A stretch of DNA of 64,000 nt, taken from positions 1,674,001 to 1,738,000 of the forward strand of contig OZ231126.1 in assembly GCA_965153355.1 (NCBI GenBank). The letters are read 5' to 3'. The notes under the pieces are model-generated. The model was not told where the DNA came from, did no database searches, and was given only the letters and a program-made list of their open reading frames with translations. Of this stretch, positions 3,486-61,995 are shown piece by piece. The position numbers and the translations under genes are program-made. This DNA comes from Flaccisagitta enflata. Lineage: Eukaryota. How positions within the stretch are numbered: position 1 is the first letter of the stretch; the number at the start of each line of letters is the position of its first letter.

Positions 3486-6400
3486 AGTATAAGTGAAATT
3501 CGATGGACTGACAGATCAATAGACCAACAGACCAATGTAGAGTTGCATGCATGCATGCAACTTTGAAAAGAAATGATTTCCTGTTTGTCTAGGGATGGGT
3601 GTGTCAAAGACAGTCATTTTTGGGCCGTTTTGGGCCATTTTTGGGGTCTTTAGAGGCCCCCAATGGCATCCACTGCTCATATTTGAGCCTAGCTTTCATT
3701 TTAAAAATATAAACCGAGTGATTTTGAAAGAAATATTCATCTCTTTGACGAAAAAAAAATCAAAAATTTGAATTTTGAAGCAGAAGAGCCCGTTTGGGCC
3801 TGTTTATGACCTGTTTTTAGGGCCTTCAGAGCCTAAAATGGCCTTGAGTGTCCCAATCTGGCCATGAATTCCCACGTTAACTTACCCTCATTCAAAACTG
3901 AAGCCTGAGTATGATGAATTTGATGAAATTAATGAAAAATTCACTCTGAACTACATTTTGAGCCAATTATGGCTGTTTTTGACCTGTTTTTGGTCTGATA
4001 CGGCAATGAGGGTCAAATTTTTATGCTGATTGTAATCTCTAGTACTTCACTGAGACTATACCTTTGCATAAATTGATGTTTTGATGAAATATTTCATTAT
4101 TTTTCTTAATTTTTTAACTTGGCCTAAAATGAGTCATTTTGGCCCTTTTTTGGTCATTTTGGGGTCCTTAGAGGCCCCACTATGGCATCCACTGGCCGTT
4201 ATCAAGCATCGGTCACATCTTTGAGTTGTAAATGAGTGAACTAGAGAGAAGTTTTGGTTTTTCTAATCAAATTACCCAAAAAATTTGAATTTTGAAGCTT
4301 TTTTGTCATTTTTGGCCATTTTTGGCTATATTTGACCTGTTTTTGGCCTGATACAATTGAGGTCAGAATTTTTGCTGTTTTCTAGTCTTGTACTTCACTG
4401 AGACTATATCTTTGCATAAATCTATAATTTGATAAAAAATTTCATTATTTTTCATTATTTTTTTTATATTCCCTAAATAGATCATTTTGGCCCTTTTACC
4501 CCTGGTCATTTTGGGGTCCTTAAAGCCCCCCTAGGGCTTTCGCTGGTTTTTCTTCAGCATAGCATAATTCCATAAGTTTTTGACTGAGTAAACTACAAAG
4601 ACAATTTGGTTTTACTAATCAAATTACCAAAAAAATTTGAATTTTGTAGCTTTTTTATCATTTTTGGCCATTTTGGCCTTTTGTGCTACCTGTACAGAGG
4701 CCGAGTAACTCATGGGAGCCTCCGGGAAGCCAACGAAAGAGCTCGGGGACTTCATCTAACTATACCCCAACTGTGATTTCACAGCCAGCCCCAAATTCGA
4801 CCATGAGCCCTCTATGAAACACCCCAACGTATTATTAAGTATCTGACATGTTTTGGCGGTTTTTCTATGATTCCTATACTGCTAAATAAACCAATCCCCC
4901 ATACTGTCGATATACTTATGTTCTAGATAGTAGAAAAAGACAAAAAATCCATGAGCAAATTAAACTACAGTGCAAATATAACCAATGATGCAATCACCAT
5001 ATCAATATGTTAAATCATATTGATTTGGCAGAGCTTCAAAGATCAGAAGGTATGACAAATTAACATTTTTTAAGATTTAGGTCATTTTGGGCTCAAAATC
5101 GGGCAACCTGGCTTTAGAAACTTGACCCAAATTCTATAAGATTATGAAACTAGAGCTCATGAGCTAACCAATGGTACAATCCCCATACTGCTATCACTTT
5201 TTGTTAAAAGCATTTCAAAGATGGAAGGGTATGATGGTTTTTGTTAAAAGCATTTCAAAGATGGAAGGGTATAATGGTTTTTTTACCGGATATATTTGGT
5301 AGTCAATTTTGACATTTTTTACAATTTCCGCTTTAGATGGACCAATATGAATAAAATTGGTGACACAATTGAAGATTTTTTAATTATCTTATTGATTCTT
5401 TTTATTAATATGACCCTCAAAATTTTGGAGGGGACTCATAAAGCAGGTGAAAATAAGTCAACTTTGGTAACAAATTTTGGGTATCCAACCCCCATCCACA
5501 CACCTTCCCCCACCTCCACAAAAAATAAAACATCGGAAACGGGTTTTTTGCCACTTTTTTTACTTGTGCTATCAGACTGATGGATGGATCTATAGAGGGA
5601 CCAGTGGTTGGCCCGACGGATGCATGTACAAAGTCCCAGAAATAGTGAAAAATGTCAAAATTGACTACCAAATTTGTCCAGTAAAAAAACCATCATACCC
5701 TTCCATCTTTGAAATGCTTTTAAATTCTAACAAAAAATGATAGCAGCAAGCGGATTGTACCATTGGTTAGCTCTAGAGCTTTAGTCTTATAATCTCATAG
5801 AATTTGGGTCAAGTTCCTAAAGCCAAGTGGCCCGATTTTGAGCCCAAGATGACCAAAATACCAAAAAATGTAAATTAATCATACCTACTGATCTTCATGC
5901 TCTGCCAAATCTATATGCTTTAATATATTGACATACTGATTGCACCATAGGTTAGATCTTGAACTGTAGTTTAATTTGCTCATGGATTTTTTGTCTTTTT
6001 CTATCTTGGAAGTGCCCAAATTTTTTGACCAAAGTAGCCAAAATGGCAAAAAAATTCACTTTTCAGCAACTGCTTCTAGAGTCTCTCAAAAATTTTGAGG
6101 GTTATATCGATCAAAAATTTTACCAGATTCAGTTAGAGCATCAAAAAATCTTCAATTTGGTCACCAATTTCATCTTAATTTGTATATTCAAAGTGGAGAT
6201 ATATCAAAAACTGTAAAAAATGTCAAAATAGGCCACCAAATTCACTGATAAAATAACTCTCACACCCTTCCATCTTTGAAGAGCTCTCAAATCTTAACAA
6301 AAAATGATAGCAATATGCGGATTGCACCACTGGCTAGCTCTTGAGCTCTAGTTTCATAATCTCATGGATTTCAGGTCAAATATCAAAAGCGAAGTGGCCC

Positions 6401-6869: not shown

Positions 6870-6879
6870 NNNNNNNNNN
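6870..6879. other. Assembly gap (10 N)
   Basis: Run of n. Confidence 1.
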
Positions 6880-23634: not shown

Positions 23635-24685
23635 TTGCATCACAGACTCCACCTTCTGCTCCTCATCCCCCAATTCCTGCTCCTGCTCCTCTAAAACACC
23701 TCCCATCTGGCTTCTACCCTCGACCTTTACTACATCGTTGAGCTTCACAAGCTCAACCCTCTGCTCCTCTGCCCTCAAGATCTGCTCCTGCTCCTACTCA
23801 ACTCCTCCCTTCTGGTGTTCTACATCAACGTTCACCACATCATCAAGCATCACAGACTCCAACCTCTGCTCCTCATCCCCCAATTCCTGCTCCTGGCCCT
23901 CCAAAACACCTCCCATCAACCCTCGACCTTCATTACATCATTAAGCTTCAAAAGCTCCACCCTCTGCTCCTCTGCCCCCAACTCCTGCTCCTGCTCCTGC
24001 TCAACTCCTCCCTTCTGGTTTTCTACTTCAACGCGCACTACATCATCAAGCATCAACGACTCCACCCTCTGCTCCTCATCCCCCAATTCCTGCTCCAGCT
24101 CCTCCGCAACTCCTCCCTTCTGGTTTTCTACTTCAACGCTCACTACATCATCGAGCATCAAAGACTCCAACCTCTGCTCCTCTGCCCCTAAATCCTGCTC
24201 CTCCGCCTCCTCAACTCCTCCCACCTGGTTTTCACCCTCGACCTTCACTACATCATTGAGCTTCACAAGCTCCACCCTCTGCTCCTCTGCCCCTAAATCC
24301 TGCTCCTCCGCCTCCTCAACTCCTCCCACCTGGTTTTCACACTCGACTTTCACTACATCATTGAGCTTCACAAGCTTCACCCTCTGCTCCTCTGCCCCTA
24401 AATCCTGCTCCTCCGCCTCCTCAACTCCTCCCACCTGGTTTTCACCCTCGACCTTCACTACATCATTGAGCTTCACAAGCTCCACCCTCTGCTCCTCTGC
24501 CCCTAAATCCTGCTCCTCCGCCTCCTCAACTCCTCCCACCTGGTTTTCACACTCGACTTTCACTACATCATTGAGCTTCACAAGCTTCACCCTCTGCTCC
24601 TCTGCCCCTAAATCCTGCTCCTCCGCCTCCTCAACTCCTCCCACCTGGTTTTCACCCTCGACCTTCACTACATCATCGAGCATCT
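23635..24685 (-). repeat. 105-bp coding minisatellite (35-aa acidic unit), about 10 units with a 210-bp higher-order dimer
   Basis: accttcactacatca recurs at 24241, 24451 and 24661 (210-bp spacing). Units alternate VEG/VEC and VKL/VEL. About 3 degenerate units lie beyond the stop codon. Confidence 0.9.
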
Positions 24686-25476
24686 CATCGATGGCGATTT
24701 GCAACTCAATAGGGCAACAGAGAAAATTGCCGCAACGGCAATTGACTACTTTTCTCACGAGTGAAACAAAAGCAGAAATGATCGGGGAGAACAACTTGGC
24801 GTAGTTGAGGCCAGAGAACACAATGATTCCAAGTAGGAAATGGATAATGAGGCAGATCATAATGAATACAAACAGGTGATTCACGTTGTACCTTTGAATA
24901 CTTTCGACAAGATCTGCATAATCAGCTGCGAGTATGTAAATAATGACTATTGGTAAGATACCACTAAGGCAAAGATGAGCTAAAGTGCGAATGACTTTAC
25001 AACATCGGCCATTACAACATGCGCAATGGCAAGGCATGAGAAGAGCGAAGATGGTAAACAACATTGAAACTGCATTTAGAGAGACAGCGACTACAAGTAA
25101 AAAAACAAAAATTATAAATTCGCGTCCGAGTCCGTACCCGGGTCCTCCCATTAGCACTAGCAATCTAAATGAAATAGTTCCGGAGAGAACGGCAACCAGT
25201 GTCAAGCAGCCCAATGGCAGAAGTGAAGCCGCTTGTGGGTATCCAAGACGAATCCACGGCTTGCGCCGATTTAGACCAATGTAACTCACGATTGAGAGAG
25301 CGATCGTGAGTGTGGACGTGGATATGGACACACATTGGAGAACGCTCATGCTGAATTCACCTGCACGGGGACCATACAACTGCTGGATGTAAACAGCTAC
25401 CCACTGTGTCGCCAGCTGAGGAACCGATTCCAACGCCACCTCACACATTTTCAACAAGGAAATGACCACTTTCAAT
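23916..25476 (-). CDS. XK-related membrane protein, coding exon 2 (TM region plus acidic repeat tail)
   Basis: Strong acceptor T11-CAG| at 25477/25476. The first base completes AGA (Arg) with exon 1, giving DDIAR-LKVVISLLKMCEVALESVPQLATQW; ESxPQ is the XK-family hallmark. Several hydrophobic helices follow, then 35-aa acidic repeats, with TGA at 23916-23918. Confidence 0.85.
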
Positions 25477-25585
25477 CTGAAAAAAAAAAACGAACGAAGA
25501 CTGTTTTATTGGTGACCTGCAACATCACTTCCATCAAAACTAAAACAGATACAGATACTGTTGATGCTTTTACCATGAGTGAAGC

Positions 25586-28861: not shown

Positions 28862-28920
28862 TATAGTTTGAACATTCACTCTCGTTAAAAGAACTTGTAA
28901 AAAAGGTATTGTAGACTTTA

Positions 28921-29272
28921 CAGTTAATCACGGTTTCGAGGGACTAACAGTAACAAGTTCAATCTGCTGTGAGTGGAATTCTGTGACAGTCAATGTACAT
29001 TGTAGGAAAAAACAAGGCTGGATACACGGCAACCCCAGTCGCGTGCGGGTGGGCAGGGGCCATATTTGAGGGCACTAGACCATTTGCGCAGGAGGAGTGA
29101 GGTCAAAGAACAAAAAAACAAACACAAAAAAAAAGTGGAATGTGACCGACCAACAGATTGACAGACGGACGGACAAATGGACAAGGCGGGATGTAGAGTT
29201 TCGTAGCAGAAAAGAAAGAAGTTGAAGCTCTATGGATTTGTTTCCATTTAAGGCGGAATTCTGTTAGTGGCG
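28921..29272 (+). mobile_element. 5' part of a pogo/Tigger-type MITE, interrupted by a HINE (about 29010-29210) and by the giant element
   Basis: TA-CAGTTAA start; similar to the intact copy at 23076-23249. Confidence 0.65.
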
Positions 29273-29581
29273 CACGACGTAGTCTGAGGTTTATTAAGTA
29301 TCGGAGAATTTGCGATACTGTATCAAAAAATTTTTGATACTGTATCAAAAAATTTTCGATACTGTATCAAAAATGTACCTTTTCTGTATCTGCGAAAACT
29401 GTTCCCTTTTTGATACTTTTTGATATTCAAAACTTACGCGCACCAATTGAGAACATCTGAGGCTTTCTATGTTATTTCTTATTGCAATCTTCTTTTTCCC
29501 TCTGCAAAGAAAGTCAAGAGGGACAAAAAATTAGTCAATCGGTGAGAGACTATAGACTGATGACATACAAAACAAGGAAAC

Positions 29582-33978: not shown

Positions 33979-40733
<6,755 letters not shown>

Positions 40734-41797: not shown

Positions 41798-43070
41798 TTC
41801 TTTTTTTCTGCAATTTTTTTCTTCTTTTTTTCTGTTCATCGTTTTTTTTTCTTTTCTTCGTTTTTTTTTCTTCTTTTTTTAGGTGCGACAAAGCGCCTCT
41901 ATAACTGGCTGTGTCCATTGGTCGGTCGGTCAGTCGGTCGGTCGGTTGGTTAACGCATTCGTTCGACGATCCACACGTCGTATCTTATTGGCCTACTTGG
42001 CCTTGTTTCTTTTCTTTTTTTTTCTTTTCTTCTTTTTTTGCATTTCTTCTTTTTTTCTTTTCTTCTTTTCTACTTTTTCTTTTTCACCTTCTTCTTCCTC
42101 TTCTTCTTCTTCATAATACCGTTACCGTCACAGCCGAGCAGCCCATTATCGTCTCAGGGCGACCCTGCCCTTTTTCCGCAACCGGAACGAACTTCCGGTT
42201 TCACGCTCGGGCCAGGTCAGGAGCTCTGAGCTCAAAACGCTCAAAAACGCTAAAAAAGTAGAAAGCACACGACCAACCCCGACTGGGCAATGATGCGTCC
42301 TGTGTCCTTGCGTGTATTGTCTTTGGCGATAGACATATCAGATATATGAAAGGACAGATAGAAGGACGGACAGACAGATAAAACAAACCCAAAGCCTACT
42401 AAAGAGTGTTTGATGCTGTGTTTAACATGGCCGCAGCTGAAAAGTGCCAAAAACTTTGATTTTTAGTCGCATGCACGCTACTATGACCCGCTAGGGTGTG
42501 TCAAAAAATAAAAAGTATCCTTGCTCAGATCTTCAACATCAGGGAGCGCAAAACAAAATAATTTTAAGATTTTTAGCGTTTTTATTTTTCAAATTTTAGT
42601 CGTCTTTCGTTTTTGTAGCGCAGGTAAAGATTGTCAAAAATATATATACTTTCAGAGTCTCCATCTGGTTTTGTTGAAAATAAGACCCAAAACCTCAATA
42701 AAGAATATAAAGTTCTACTTCTTTTTATGATTTCTGTGATAAAAAAAAAAACACTTTTACCTAACCCCACTTAGGAATCAAACTAAAATATTTAAATAGC
42801 TACTTTAATATATTTATGAACGATAATTCTGATATGAAATCAATGATACAGCAATACACAAATTAACAGCTAAAAAAGGGTTTTGGAAAAAACGTAAAAT
42901 AAATAAAACACCATTGTCAGCCATGCTTTGCTCAAGTATTTTCGTAAAGAGTCAACCATGCATCACAGGCACTGGGAAACTCATTTCATCTTCAAAAATA
43001 GTAGTAATTGTAATGCTACAAAAAAAAAGTTAAAAAACGTTTTTTAGGCTAAAACTCCACAAATAACCCT

Positions 43071-43752
43071 CTGAGGAATGGTTTTTCTCTGTTTTCCGAC
43101 TTGAGTGGTTTTCAGGCACCTCATGGCAGTGTTATTCCCCCCCATTTGATTGTCACACCCCTGCGCCCTGATGTATTTGTGGTAAATGAAGATACGCGTG
43201 TTATTGTCATTCTCGAATTGACTTGCCCATGGGAAAGGAACATAGATCGTGATCATGTCTACAAAGAGGAAAAGTATGCCCCGCTTGTGGCAGATTTGTC
43301 CTGTGAATTTGCTGTTTCTCAATTCTCTATTGAAATCTCTGCTAGGGGGATGATTACAAAAGAAAATAAAGCGCATTTGAAAAGCTTTGGCCTTAGATGT
43401 TGTGAGGCACAAAATACTGATTTAAAGGGTTTGATTTCAGCCTGCTCAAAAGCATCTCTACTGGCCTCCTTTAGCATTTTTTCCGCTCACAACGAGCCAT
43501 CGTGGTCATCTCCAACGCCGCTCTTAGTCCGGACCTAATTTTAACCTATGTGGTTTTACTTTGCTGTTTTTTTTCTTTTTAATTCAATTTATACGTACAT
43601 CCGGTTCAATGACATGTACTAGACCAACAGCGTTAATATTTATTATGTGCCATGGAATCTAGTAACCTTCGAGCACCGGTTGTATTGTTGCATTGCATTG
43701 TTTTAATGCATGTTCCTTGTGTTTTCTTGTGAAAATTACAACTCATCATCAT
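43071..43752 (+). mobile_element. 5'-truncated non-LTR retrotransposon: C-terminal restriction-like endonuclease domain plus 3' UTR (R2-group, e.g. Hero/NeSL/CRE-like)
   Basis: ORF to 43538 reads LRPDVFVV...ILELTCPWE...KEEKYAPL...IEISARG, the PD-(D/E)xK RLE signature. No RT domain. Ends near a short (TCA)n tract. Confidence 0.8.
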
Positions 43753-53637: not shown

Positions 53638-54171
53638 CAGTCAGCGGACAAAACACAATAGGTATATATATCACTCCGTTGGTTTTGATCCAACCCACTG
53701 ATATTGAACAGAATGCTGTAAACAACAACTGGTTGTTGAAATTACAGCCGGCTGTTACATTACAAAGTTGGTAAAAATCCAACTTTCATCAAATAGAATA
53801 AAACCTGCAGATTCATAATCCTGATGAAATTTTGAGAAGTTTGATATGTCACAACATATACTTTTATATGAAAATAAAAATGTTAAGTATTAATGTTTAA
53901 TGTTTAATTCAATTATAACGTGATGTTAGAAAAAATATTTCTTACTAAAAATGTTAAGTGTGACGTATCAAACTTCTCAGAATTTCATCAGGATTATGAA
54001 TCTGCAGGTCTCATTCTATTTGATGAAAGTTGGATTTTTGCCGACTTTGTAACTTAACAGCCGGCTGTAATTTTAACAACCAGATGTTTACAGTATTCTG
54101 TTCAACATCAGTGGGTTGGATCAAAACCAGCGGAGTGATATATATACCTATTGTGTTTTGTCCGCTGACTG
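53638..54171. mobile_element. Near-palindromic MITE, copy 2 (spacer in opposite orientation)
   Basis: Highly similar to 34331-34857; TA on the right flank. Confidence 0.88.
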
Positions 54172-55915: not shown

Positions 55916-56882
55916 AATAATTTTCAATAAAAGTATTATAACTTCACAATTTTACTTTTTAGTCACAGGCTACGCGACTCTACACCCTGCTTTGTTGGTC
56001 TGTCACACTTTACTTTTTTGGGTTTTTGCGGTCTTTGGCCTCCCTGCTCCTGTCCTTATCATCAATTGATCTCAAATACAACCTCTGCCCACCCGCATGC
56101 GATTGGGGTAGTTTTGTATCCGGCCTTGTTTTCTAGAATACAACTTGACCATGGAAACTGCCCCTTCGTGTGCATCATGACATAGAAGAAGAGACATAAT
56201 AGGAGGATTTCTTTAGATAAAAGTAAACAAAGATCACTCAGACTATCTTTGCTACTGTGAGAGATTTCCAATTCCACTAAAACTCGAATCGCTAAAAGCA
56301 TTAGTTATTCATCATTCCACTCAAGCACAACGTCGTGCTTGAGTGGAAATGATTTTAACTTATGCACAATTTTCGTGATTGAATGGATGCCTGATTTTTT
56401 CACCCAATCTGAGGCTTATGTTATTATAAACAGTGTTCTCAGACAAAATACGTCGTGCACTTCTGAGTAAGTTAAGGTAGACAGATGCGGAATGCCTGCA
56501 AATTCAAAGGGCTTATTTTTAATCGCGTGCTACGCGACTCTTCACCCCGCTTTGTCCGTTGGTCGGTTGATTCGTTGGTTACACTTTACTTTTTTTATGT
56601 TTTTTATTCTTTCACCATACTGCTCCTGCCTAAATGCTCTGGTGACCTCAAATATGACCCCTGCCCACCCGCACGGGACTCGGGTAACCGTGTATCCGGC
56701 CTTTTTTTTATGATTCGTTGAGTCTCTTTACAGTGGTAAGTGTAAAGGTAGAGAAAGAGAGAATTAAGAAAATGGCTCTTATGGTTTGGAATGCCCTCAC
56801 TTAAAAGAGTACCTCAAGAAGCTCTAGAAATCGCTGTCTTGACAAATGGCGGCCGTGTTTCAGCCAGGGAATGTTCACACTT

Positions 56883-57736: not shown

Positions 57737-57947
57737 TAAATGATCTACGATCAACTTGTATTACTTGCCTAGTCCAAAAACAAACTTATTTCCGAAGTGG
57801 AAAGATTTTTTTGTAAACAAAGTATTTTGTCATTTTATTGTCTCATGTTATATAAACAAACAAAATTCTGAAAAAAACAAAAAGAAAAAAATCTTATTCG
57901 ATTTTTTAATTGAGCACATTTTTATTGTTAAGAGTATGTTCTATAGT

Positions 57948-60558
57948 AACAAGGCCAACACCTATAAGTCGCGTGCAGGACTAAAATAACTGAACTGACT
58001 TGACTCCTTATTGTATCTTTTTATCGAAAATCAGACTTAAACACAACCCAAAAAGACCCAAACCAGACTCAAACCAGACTCAAACCAGACTCAAACCAGA
58101 CTCAAACCAGAATTAAACCAGACCAAAACCAGACCTAGATCAGACACAAACCAGACATAAACCAGATTTAAGCCAGACTCAAACCAGACTCAAACCAGAT
58201 GCAAACCAGACTCAAACCAGACTCAAACCAGACTCTAACCAGACTCAAACCAGACTCAAACCAGACTCAAACCAGACTCAAACCAGACTCAAACCAGACT
58301 CAAACCAGACTCAAACCAGACTTAAACCAGACCGAAACCAGGCTCAAACCAGGCTCAAACCAGGCTCAAACCAGGCTCAAACCAGACTCAAACCAGACTC
58401 AAACCAGACTCAAACCAGACTCAAACCAGAATTAAACCAGACTGAAACCAGACCTAAATCAGACATAAACCAGACATAAACCAGACATAAACCAGATTTA
58501 AGCCAGACTCAAACCAGACTCAAACCAGACTCAAACCAGACTCAAACCAGACTCAAACCAGACTCAAACCAGACTTAAACCAGACCGACACCAGGCTCAA
58601 ACCTGGCTCAAACCAGAATCAAACCAGACTCAAACCAGACACAAACCAGACTCAAACCAGACTCAAACCAGAATCAAACCAGACCAGAACCAGACCAAAA
58701 CCAGACCTAAATCAGACCTAAATCAAACATAAACCAGACAAAAACCAAACATAGACCAGACCTAAACCAGACCTAACCCAGACCTAAACCAGACATAAAT
58801 CAGACATGAATCAGTATTAAACCAGACTTAAACCAGACTTAAACCAGACGTAAACCAGACTTAAACCAGACTTAAACCAGACTTAAACCAGACTTGAACC
58901 AGACTTAAACCAGACTTTAACCAGACTTAAACCAGGCTTAAACCATACTTATCTTTAATATCATTTTAACCAGCAGACTTAAACCAGCAGACTAAAACCA
59001 TTAGACCAGCAGACTTAAACCATTAGATTTAAACCAGCAGACTTAAACCAGCAGACATAAACCAGCAGATTCAAACCAGCAGACTTTAACCAGCAAACTT
59101 AACCCATTAGATTTAAACCAGCAGACTTAAACCAGCAGATTTAAACCAGCAGATTTAAACCATGAGACTTTAACCATCAGACTTTACCCAGCAGACTAAC
59201 CAGCAGACTTTAACCAGCAGACTTTAACCAGCAGACTTCAACCGGCAGACTTCAACCAGCAAACTTCAACCAAAAATGACCAAAAATGACCAAAATGACC
59301 AAAATGACCAAAAATGACCAAAAATGACCAAAAATGACCAAAATGACCAAAAGTGACCAAAAATGACCAAAAATGACCAAAATGACCAAAAATGACCAAA
59401 AATGATCAAAATTCATCAAAAATGACCATTAATGACCAACAAGGTCATTAGACCTGAGTCGCGTGCGTCGGCACTTTAAAAAAAGTCAGGCAGACAGACA
59501 GACAAACAATTCTTTTTTCAAAAAGACATTTTAAACAGCTTTTTACCACTCCAAACTTCTTCTCCTCATCCTAAAGACGTTTAAAATGCGATAAAAAACC
59601 TTTAAAACGACTTTGTGACGGACCGACCGACGGACGGACGGACGGACGGACGGACCGACGGACGGACCGAAAAGTGACTTATAGAGTCGCGTAGCACGCG
59701 ACTAAAAATGACCAAAATGACCAAAAGTGACCAAAAATGACCAAAAATGACCAAAAATGACCAAAAATGACCAAAATGACCAAAAATGACCAAAAATGAC
59801 CAAAAATGACCAAAATGACCAAAAATGATCAAAATTCATCAAAAATGACCATTAATGACAAAAAAATGATCAAAATTCATCAAAAATGACCATTAATGAC
59901 AAAAAATGACCAAAAATGACTAAAAATGACCAAAAGTGATCAAAAATGACAAAAAATGACCAAAATGACCAAAAATGACTAAAAATGACCAAAAATGACC
60001 AAAAATGATTAAAATGTCTAAAAATGACCAAAATGACCAAAATCACCAAAATGACCAAAAATGATCGAAATGACCAAAAATGACCAAAAATGATCAATAT
60101 GACCAAAAGTGACAGAAAATGATCAAAAATGATCAAAAATGATCAAAAATGATCAAAAATGATCAAAAATGACCAAAAATGACCAAAATTACCCAAAATT
60201 ACCTAAAATTACCCAAAATTACCAAAATGACCAAAAATAACCAAAAATGACCAAAAATGACCAAAAAGGATCAAAAAGGACCAAAAATGACCAAAAATGA
60301 TCAAAAATGATCAAGAATGACCAAATTTGACCAAAATGACCAAAATGACCAAAATGACCAAAATGACCAAAAATGACCAAAAATGACCAAAAATGACTAA
60401 AAGCAACCAATTATTCCCAAAAACAACAAAAAAATGACTCAAAATAACTCCAGACGACCCAAAAAGACTCAAAAAAGCAAAGTGTTACCGACGGACCGAC
60501 GGACCGACCGACCGACCGACCGACGGAGCGGGTTGTAGAGTCGCGTGCACGCGACTAA
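57948..60558 (-). mobile_element. HINE-like element expanded by three satellite arrays, with a nested HINE at 59438-59705
   Basis: AACAAGG...AGTCGCGTG at 57948 and AGTCGCGTGCACGCGACT at ~60540 bracket arrays of (AAACCAGACTC)n, (AAACCAGCAGACTT)n and (AAAAATGACC)n. Confidence 0.8.
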
Positions 60559-60782: not shown

Positions 60783-61183
60783 AACGCTCCCGCTTACCAC
60801 TGGCAAAGAAAAATTCATCTACCGAGTATAACGAAGTACCCACTCATCAAATAGAGCCAAGCTAAATCTCCGGGAGTTGCAGAGGATGTAAGGGACATCC
60901 CCAATTACTTTATATAACTTTATAAAGCGGCGTCCCCTGAAACGCGAGGAGAGGCGTAGAGAACACCCAAAAGCGGTGTGTTGCGCGGAAATGACAAGTA
61001 TCGTTTTCATGTATCGGATTCAAATCGCGCGAATTCTAAGTATCGATTTATGTATCAAATAAAAAAAAGTCTTCTGCTCCACTTTTGATACATTTTTGAT
61101 ACTTGGAATACGCGCAGGTACAAAAAAGGTACAAACTCTCCGATACTTAGGTAATATATTTTCTTAAAGGAGACTAGGTCGTG

Positions 61184-61212
61184 TGGCGGTTCTGTTAGAC
61201 TGGGGTTGTACT
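61184..61212 (+). mobile_element. 3' end of the same split pogo/Tigger-type MITE
   Basis: tggcggttctgttagactggggttgtactg-TA matches the 3' end of the copy at 23076-23249 (agcgggtccattggagcagggttcaattg-TA). Confidence 0.65.
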
Positions 61213-61557
61213 GTAGTTTCTTCAGAAAATTATGATTAGCCTAAAGCAAAAAGCTGTCCATAACCAAATGATTCGTCGGCTCTTCAATCAGTTAAGATAT
61301 TTTCTGTAAGATCTTCATAGATTACCATTATCATATTTTGAATCAAAAGTGATTATTTAAGTTTTAGTGCCTTGCTATGTGGATATTATCAATCACTAGA
61401 CACGTTAAAAATAACTTTCAACAACGAGAATTATCTTTGCCTTAGAATATACTGCGAGAGTGTCACTCCTCACTGTTGCGAGGCAGCATCACCATTCACC
61501 AGCCTATCACAAAAAGGCTAACTAGTCTGCGAAAAAAAGAAAATATTGTATAAAAAC

Positions 61558-61970
61558 CTAGCAATGTCGTCCTGTGTTCTAATGTTGTTGTCGTTGTCGT
61601 TGCGAATGACAAAAATGGCGCCGTATATATTGACAATGACAGGTCCAAGCAAAATTAGCGAGCAGATAAGAAGAAGAACTCGAATGGACTTTGGTAGCCA
61701 AGTCAGACGAGCGTCGCCGCGACGAAGGAAATACGCGACCAGGAGGAATTGGGTCAAACCGCCGAGTAAGATCCAAACCGTTGTTACAATGGCAAAGCCA
61801 GAGTTCTCGTCAGAACTGAGGCCGTTTGATGTTTCATACGGCCAGCCCCGGACAATTCTGCTGCTATTCCAGTACTCATGAGCAAGTGAGATGTCGGTGC
61901 CGATGTCGACCAACGTGAAAGCGGCACCGGCACCGAATGTCAAAATGGCCATCAACGTTCCAAACGCCAT
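61558..61970 (-). CDS. XK-related (XKR family) membrane protein, coding exon 1
   Basis: True ATG at 61968-61970 (context CCCACGATGG) with an in-frame stop upstream. Translation has an XK-family-like N-terminal motif (VDIGTDISLAHEY) and about 3 hydrophobic segments. Phase-2 donor AG|GT at 61558/61557; the donor (GTTTTT) is weak. Confidence 0.8.
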
Positions 61971-61995
61971 CGTGGGAAGCGATTTGATAGGTTAT

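Follow-up and report, generated by a model that had tools for sequence, protein, structure and literature searches.

In the 64-kb window (the whole stretch of DNA that we analysed), we read positions 29273–61183, with moderate confidence, as a single insertion of a non-autonomous cut-and-paste DNA transposon, most likely of the Transib/RAG-like type and mobilised in trans. The two ends of this putative element are multipartite, and several of their spacings are unequal, not one alone. Three blocks are shared between the ends in inverted orientation, an exact 5-bp direct repeat flanks them, and the left boundary recurs at another insertion site in a contig from a marine metagenome. The superfamily is suggested by the termini and the duplication, and the function of the unequal spacing is weighed below against several rival readings.

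Architecture of the two ends

By direct reading of the sequence, each end carries one copy of a terminal 13-bp block (CACGACSTAGTCT) and one copy of a second, 18-bp block (TAAGTATCGGAGARTTTG), inverted with respect to the other end (Table 1). The sequence-only reading had described these two blocks, had placed the start of the second one at position 23 from the left terminus and at position 35 from the right terminus, and had reported unrelated spacers of 9 bp (left) and 21 bp (right); all of its coordinates agree with ours, and we likewise found no convincing alignment between the two spacers. Between the ends, 12 of 13 positions are identical in the terminal block and 17 of 18 in the second block. 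When up to three mismatches were allowed, the 18-mer occurred at exactly two places in the 64-kb window, with no third copy beyond the two ends, and two or more places were reached in none of 100 shuffles. The 13-mer had two exact matches in the window and one more, with two mismatches, at 56445; three matches were reached by 4 of 100 shuffles, so that the 13-mer taken alone is weaker than the 18-mer.

A third block, TGTACCTTTTYTGTAYCTGCG, is also common to both ends and was found at two places in the window, while at least two were reached in 0 of 100 shuffles. It sits 51 positions deeper in the left end than in the right end, where it adjoins the second block with an overlap of 2 bases. In the left end, and only there, three tandem 22-bp units separate the second block from the third. 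Within these units, GTATC falls at positions 48, 70, and 92 and GATAC at 42, 64, and 86, and the forward GTAYC copies of the left end (26, 48, 70, 92, and 114) follow an exact 22-nt period. The GTAYC sites of the right end have a layout unlike that of the left end. Overall, GTAYC/GRTAC sites number 10 in the terminal 140 nt on the left and 9 in the terminal 182 nt on the right, compared to a background of 0.58 per 260 nt across the window. The GTATCAAAA repeats previously noticed inside both ends are real, as the two ends hold 7 of the 11 exact matches found across the window, and 11 matches were reached in 0 of 100 shuffles (shuffle mean 1.09). Given that many GTAYC sites are present in differing layouts, the asymmetry of the ends is broader than one spacer.

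Table 1. Features of the putative element and its flanks, in window coordinates; positions within an end are counted from its terminus.
Feature	Coordinates	Strand	Source
Left TGGCG copy, 5-bp target-site duplication	29268–29272	.	direct reading
Left terminal block CACGACGTAGTCT, CAC terminus	29273–29285	+	direct reading, motif scan
Left spacer GAGGTTTAT, 9 bp	29286–29294	+	direct reading
Left second block TAAGTATCGGAGAATTTG, carrying the first GTATC site at position 26	29295–29312	+	motif scan
Left-only tandem stretch of 22-bp units CGATACTGTATCAAAAAATTTT	29313–29373	+	repeat family D2, spacing 22, 22
Left third block TGTACCTTTTCTGTATCTGCG, start position 102	29374–29394	+	motif scan
Two more TTTTTGATAY repeats, left end	29407–29427	+	repeat family D3
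Interior, about 31.6 kb, rich in repeats and microsatellites, without recognisable transposase gene	29428–61001	.	frame scan
Right subterminal GTATC/GATAC repeats, positions 82–182 from the right terminus	61002–61102	-	direct reading
Right third block TGTACCTTTTTTGTACCTGCG, start position 51	61113–61133	-	motif scan
Right second block TAAGTATCGGAGAGTTTG	61149–61132	-	motif scan
Right spacer CCTTTAAGAAAATATATTACC (- strand), 21 bp, 76% A+T	61170–61150	-	direct reading
Right terminal block CACGACCTAGTCT	61183–61171	-	direct reading, motif scan
Right TGGCG copy, 5-bp target-site duplication	61184–61188	.	direct reading

The 5-bp target-site duplication, known from one copy of the element, is an exact direct repeat in which 4 of 5 bases are G or C. 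Flanks taken at other lengths are all unequal: 2 bp (CG and TG), 3 bp (GCG and TGG), 4 bp (GGCG and TGGC), and 8 bp (TAGTGGCG and TGGCGGTT). Besides the duplication, the flanks share a motif of 14–16 nt, GGCGG(AA)TTCTGTTAG, at 29252–29267 and 61185–61198. This motif may be a local tandem motif of the target, which suggests and would fit flanks that were formerly contiguous. A long duplication of 14–16 bp, with ends beginning at TGGCG, was rejected because such ends would not be inverted relative to each other and because a foreign contig begins at 29273.

Copies of the left end and the meaning of the unequal spacing

A search of sequencing runs covered 12 runs and found part of 28900–29520 in 8 of them, with a top word share of 0.20, most of which was due to an abundant short repeat at 29008–29120 and not to the element. 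Contigs of four runs, X1 and X5 (both "organism A") and X2 and X3 (both marine metagenomes), were aligned to 28900–29560 at 80% likeness. The alignment of a 420-letter contig from X2 began at exactly 29273 and ran to 29560, and another 30 letters did not match the flank present here, as the contig stems from another insertion site. Given that it aligned inward from 29273, this position is a true family boundary. Summed depth over the element end was roughly 150–600 in X1 and 460–1,800 in X5, compared to about 70–90 and about 75–240, respectively, over the neighbouring single-copy flank, and this several-fold excess in both runs points to a low-copy family.

Among the matches listed from the contigs of these four runs, there were no base differences in 29158–29352, and the left 9-bp spacer was unchanged in both length and bases. 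Among the matches listed, 29273–29491 showed a single length change, in which one X2 contig lacked a 22-bp unit at 29314. The variable number of units speaks for tolerance in at least the inner spacing and against a strictly fixed one. The sequence-only reading had proposed to look for spacers that keep their length across copies while varying in sequence. For the left ends, to which this comparison applies, the first part stood, with 9 bp kept, but the spacer sequence was identical too, so that the kept length cannot separate constraint from recent descent.

Searches in wider collections returned no further ends. The 18-mer had 43 loci in metagenome contigs, which we regard as chance matches because all lay in unrelated, mostly bacterial-looking contexts and had no terminal block upstream. 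The 18-mer pattern had 0 matches in viral contigs, and a gapped pattern (terminal block, 5–30 N, start of the second block) had no match in genome contigs or viral contigs. A literal sequence search of the literature found no paper containing the start of the 18-mer or one of the two 13-mers.

It is possible, if somewhat unlikely, that the element is real while the difference between 9 and 21 bp has no function, the offset being a founder indel in an unconstrained region that the transposase tolerated and that is now carried by a recently spread small family. The unrelated spacer sequences would fit this explanation, as would the other spacings that differ too, namely the third block lying 51 positions deeper on the left and the varying number of 22-bp units. 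The near-identical copies, without differences in 29158–29352 among the matches listed, indicate a recent founder, and RAG-like B enzymes have been proposed to be fairly insensitive to end asymmetry and to rely mainly on the terminal 15–17 bp (PMC7204232). However, conservation between the ends is strong in the blocks on both sides of the spacer (12/13 and 17/18) and lacking in the spacer itself, which is the pattern of two separate binding sites. In addition, offsets close to one helical turn are also seen in ProtoRAG, RAGL-A, Transib families, recombination signals, and the P element.

Superfamily assignment and comparison with known systems

The CAC termini and the GC-rich 5-bp duplication of the putative transposon point to the Transib/RAG-like clan, a membership that we infer, given that the defining RAG1-like transposase was not found in the interior. 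CAC termini, 5-bp duplications, and GC-rich targets are described as hallmarks of Transib, and among eukaryotic DNA transposons Transib is stated to be the sole superfamily that makes 5-bp duplications (Kapitonov and Jurka, 2005; PMC1131882); the same three features are also described in RAG-like transposons (PMC7204232). According to the caution given in a recent preprint (10.64898/2026.08.26.747230), both the length of the duplication and the sequence of the ends are variable within Transib, and homology of the transposase should take precedence over them. Here, both ends begin with CACGAC, one copy shows the 5-bp duplication, and the bipartite elements (13 bp and 18 bp) are separated by unequal spacers of 9 and 21 bp. 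Several features count against this assignment. A gene-less element of 32 kb is far above the 3–4 kb reported for autonomous Transibs (PMC1131882), and the interior encodes no recognisable transposase. The heptamer match is limited, as CACGACG shares with CACAGTG the initial CAC and the last G (4 of 7 positions), and the A-rich nonamer of the published consensus (PMC1131882) is absent: positions 31–39 of the left end read GGAGAATTT, and the right end has no AAAAAAATC-like run there.

Unequal bipartite ends have precedents in this clan. In several Transib families the 5' and 3' ends are reported to resemble RSS12 and RSS23 (PMC1131882), and asymmetric ends are reported for all Subgroup I Transibs (PMC9435367). 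Like Transib, including the non-autonomous TransibN families, whose ends are 12/23-like, the element studied here has a CAC terminus, a 5-bp duplication, a GC-rich target, and a second block behind a variable spacer, and, like some Transib families, it has spacers that differ in length between the ends. In contrast to Transib, its terminus reads CACGACG instead of a CACAATG-like sequence, the second block is not an A-rich nonamer, no RAG1-like transposase was found, many extra subterminal GTAYC sites are present, and its length is 32 kb compared to 3–4 kb for autonomous Transibs. Among RAG-like transposons, the algal AanRAGL is described with elements of 13 and 10 bp and spacers of 4 and 13 bp (PMC9435367), the hemichordate RAGL-A element (PflRAGL-A) has a 10-bp asymmetry (PMC10462144), and ProtoRAG is reported to need asymmetric 27/31 ends for efficient activity, a length requirement that was functionally tested (PMC8289069). 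The ends described here share with these three a CAC-starting 13-bp terminal element, a second element, unequal spacers, and 5-bp duplications. They differ in that RAG1L and RAG2L genes are absent between the ends, the A-rich stretch at positions 8–10 is absent, and the length difference is 12 bp instead of 4, 9, or 10.

The sequence-only reading had likened the asymmetric ends to the 12/23 signals of V(D)J recombination. Part of this likeness holds, namely CAC at the cleavage end and a bipartite and unequal organisation with a 12-bp difference of about one helical turn. The closer match to V(D)J signals does not hold: the heptamer agrees at four of seven positions, no ACAAAAACC-like nonamer is present, the spacers are 9 and 21 bp, or 15 and 27 bp when measured from a 7-bp heptamer, compared to 12 and 23 in V(D)J signals, and these are transposon ends that do not lie beside gene segments. 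The same reading had expected a bearing on how the 12/23 rule arose, which is not new, since unequal bipartite ends have already been published for Transib, RAG-like elements, and ProtoRAG. As such asymmetry is catalogued in Transib and RAG-like elements and functionally tested in ProtoRAG, it opens no new question here. If the family is of Transib type, it would add a further natural example of transposon ends that are bipartite and unequal, and would lend support to the view, already in the literature, that asymmetric signals are older than V(D)J recombination. What is unusual is the size of the element and its dense GTAYC arrays, and the latter would offer a clean substrate for studying how the number and the phasing of sites set a left end apart from a right end.

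Assignment to another superfamily with subterminal repeats (P-like, CACTA/Mirage/Chapaev-like, or undescribed), in which the spacing would work as in the P element, through a site-specific domain, such as the THAP domain of P transposases, on internal sites, seems unlikely to us. The dense subterminal repeats here occur in both orientations, a trait that typifies CACTA and P elements and not Transibs, whose ends are short. In the Drosophila P element, distances of 9 and 21 bp are described from the terminal repeat to the transposase site, which the authors liken to 12/23 signals (PMC7776569); both numbers are identical to the spacer lengths here, and extra subterminal inverted repeats are a further likeness. 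A zebrafish P-like element is described with 13-bp terminal repeats (PMC10983969), matching the length of the terminal block. On the other hand, the P element has 31-bp terminal repeats that start with CAT and makes 8-bp duplications, while here a 13-bp block starts with CAC, the 8-bp flanks (TAGTGGCG and TGGCGGTT) differ, and the 5-bp repeat is exact. The CACTA group makes duplications of 2–4 bp according to the above preprint (10.64898/2026.08.26.747230), while the 3-bp flanks GCG and TGG differ. Judged by duplication length, membership in the P superfamily fails, given the unequal 8-bp flanks, and membership in the CACTA/Mirage/Chapaev group fails likewise, given the unequal 2-, 3-, and 4-bp flanks.

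For a Transib/RAG-like element, we propose a mechanism whose superfamily, binding roles, and any pairing rule we infer. The element would be moved in trans by a DDE transposase of RAG1-like type whose gene lies elsewhere in the genome. Each end consists of a 13-bp cleavage-proximal block starting with CAC, an unconserved spacer, and an array of GTAYC-core sites, the first of which lies within the 18-bp block conserved between the ends. On the right end this first site is shifted inward by 12 bp, or about one helical turn, and the left end carries the extra 22-bp units. The catalytic core of the transposase could engage the terminal block and cut at the CAC ends, and a separate, flexibly tethered DNA-binding domain could read the GTAYC sites. 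Owing to the one-turn offset and the differing site arrays, the left and the right end may then not be interchangeable within the paired complex. Such non-equivalence is established for the ends of ProtoRAG and for recombination signal sequences, and it has been proposed for the P element. A bolder version, which we consider quite unlikely, is a new cut-and-paste lineage of a marine animal in which the transposase enforces left/right pairing by means of the one-turn offset of the first subterminal site, with the 9/21 numbers of the P element alongside CAC ends of RAG/Transib type and 5-bp duplications, and in which about 32 kb of non-coding cargo can be moved. If true, it would represent an independent natural 12/23-like rule outside the characterised RAG-like systems.

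Interior, host gene, and neighbouring repeats

In the frame scan of the interior, which covered 131 frames of at least 50 aa after pre-filtering for complexity, no frame matched a transposase family in Pfam at E values up to 0.01. The Pfam matches of these frames were to low-complexity families alone (DUF3915, Atrophin-1, and PBP1_TM). The longest complex frame, of 161 aa at 43053–43535 (+), had no Pfam match and weak retroelement-like leads; the Atlas clusters closest to it were unnamed eukaryotic proteins, often from arthropods (score 0.90), and a zf-RVT lead was weak (0.78). This frame is probably a retroelement fragment. Across the 64-kb window, long open frames are absent and microsatellites are many, which marks the DNA as eukaryotic.

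The element occupies an intron of roughly 36 kb in a putative XK-related membrane protein gene on the minus strand, of which two exon-like frames are predicted. The frame at 23919–25505 (-), of 529 aa, had five relatives in the protein search (best E value of 1.5e-116), two of which carried PF09815, and its profile alignment ran from position 122 onward. The upstream frame at 61521–61991 (-), 338 bp from the element, matched the start of the XK-related profile (positions 3–31) weakly, with an E value of 0.0037, under the curated cut-off. In the tail of the 529-aa frame, residues 267–321 of one relative (P0001) match several consecutive places, spaced about 105 nt apart.

It is very unlikely that the two ends stem from separate events, as solo ends, or from chance, with the intervening 32 kb being ordinary intron DNA: while the region is very large and its interior is without a transposon gene and resembles the surrounding repeat-rich intron, three blocks are shared in outward-facing inverted orientation, the second and third far beyond chance by shuffles, the 5-bp repeat is identical on both flanks, the shared flank motif suggests that the flanks were formerly contiguous, and the window holds no other end copy.

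Several other repeats lie in and around the putative transposon. The short interspersed repeat at about 29008–29120, about 150 bp upstream of the left end, is very abundant; more than 30,000 contig pieces per "organism A" run aligned to a 661-base stretch, as did several thousand from either marine metagenome run, and most of these pieces were this repeat. A tRNA-derived origin of the repeat was rejected, with 0 genes found by ARAGORN. Near the right end and within the element, a long tandem array at about 57917–59500 has an 11-nt period and about 118 register shifts. A palindromic repeat of roughly 240 nt at 34330–34858 (93% complementary, arms 51 nt apart) has a related copy 19 kb away at 53638–54088, and the two look like a MITE-like element nested in the interior. 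An assembly gap is marked by a run of 10 N at 6870–6879. Further upstream, 1235–1635 and 3956–4356 form a 401-nt inverted repeat that is 95% complementary, with arms 2.3 kb apart, and more inverted arms lie at 759–981 and 4605–4827; together, these inverted repeats are possibly a foldback or long-TIR element.
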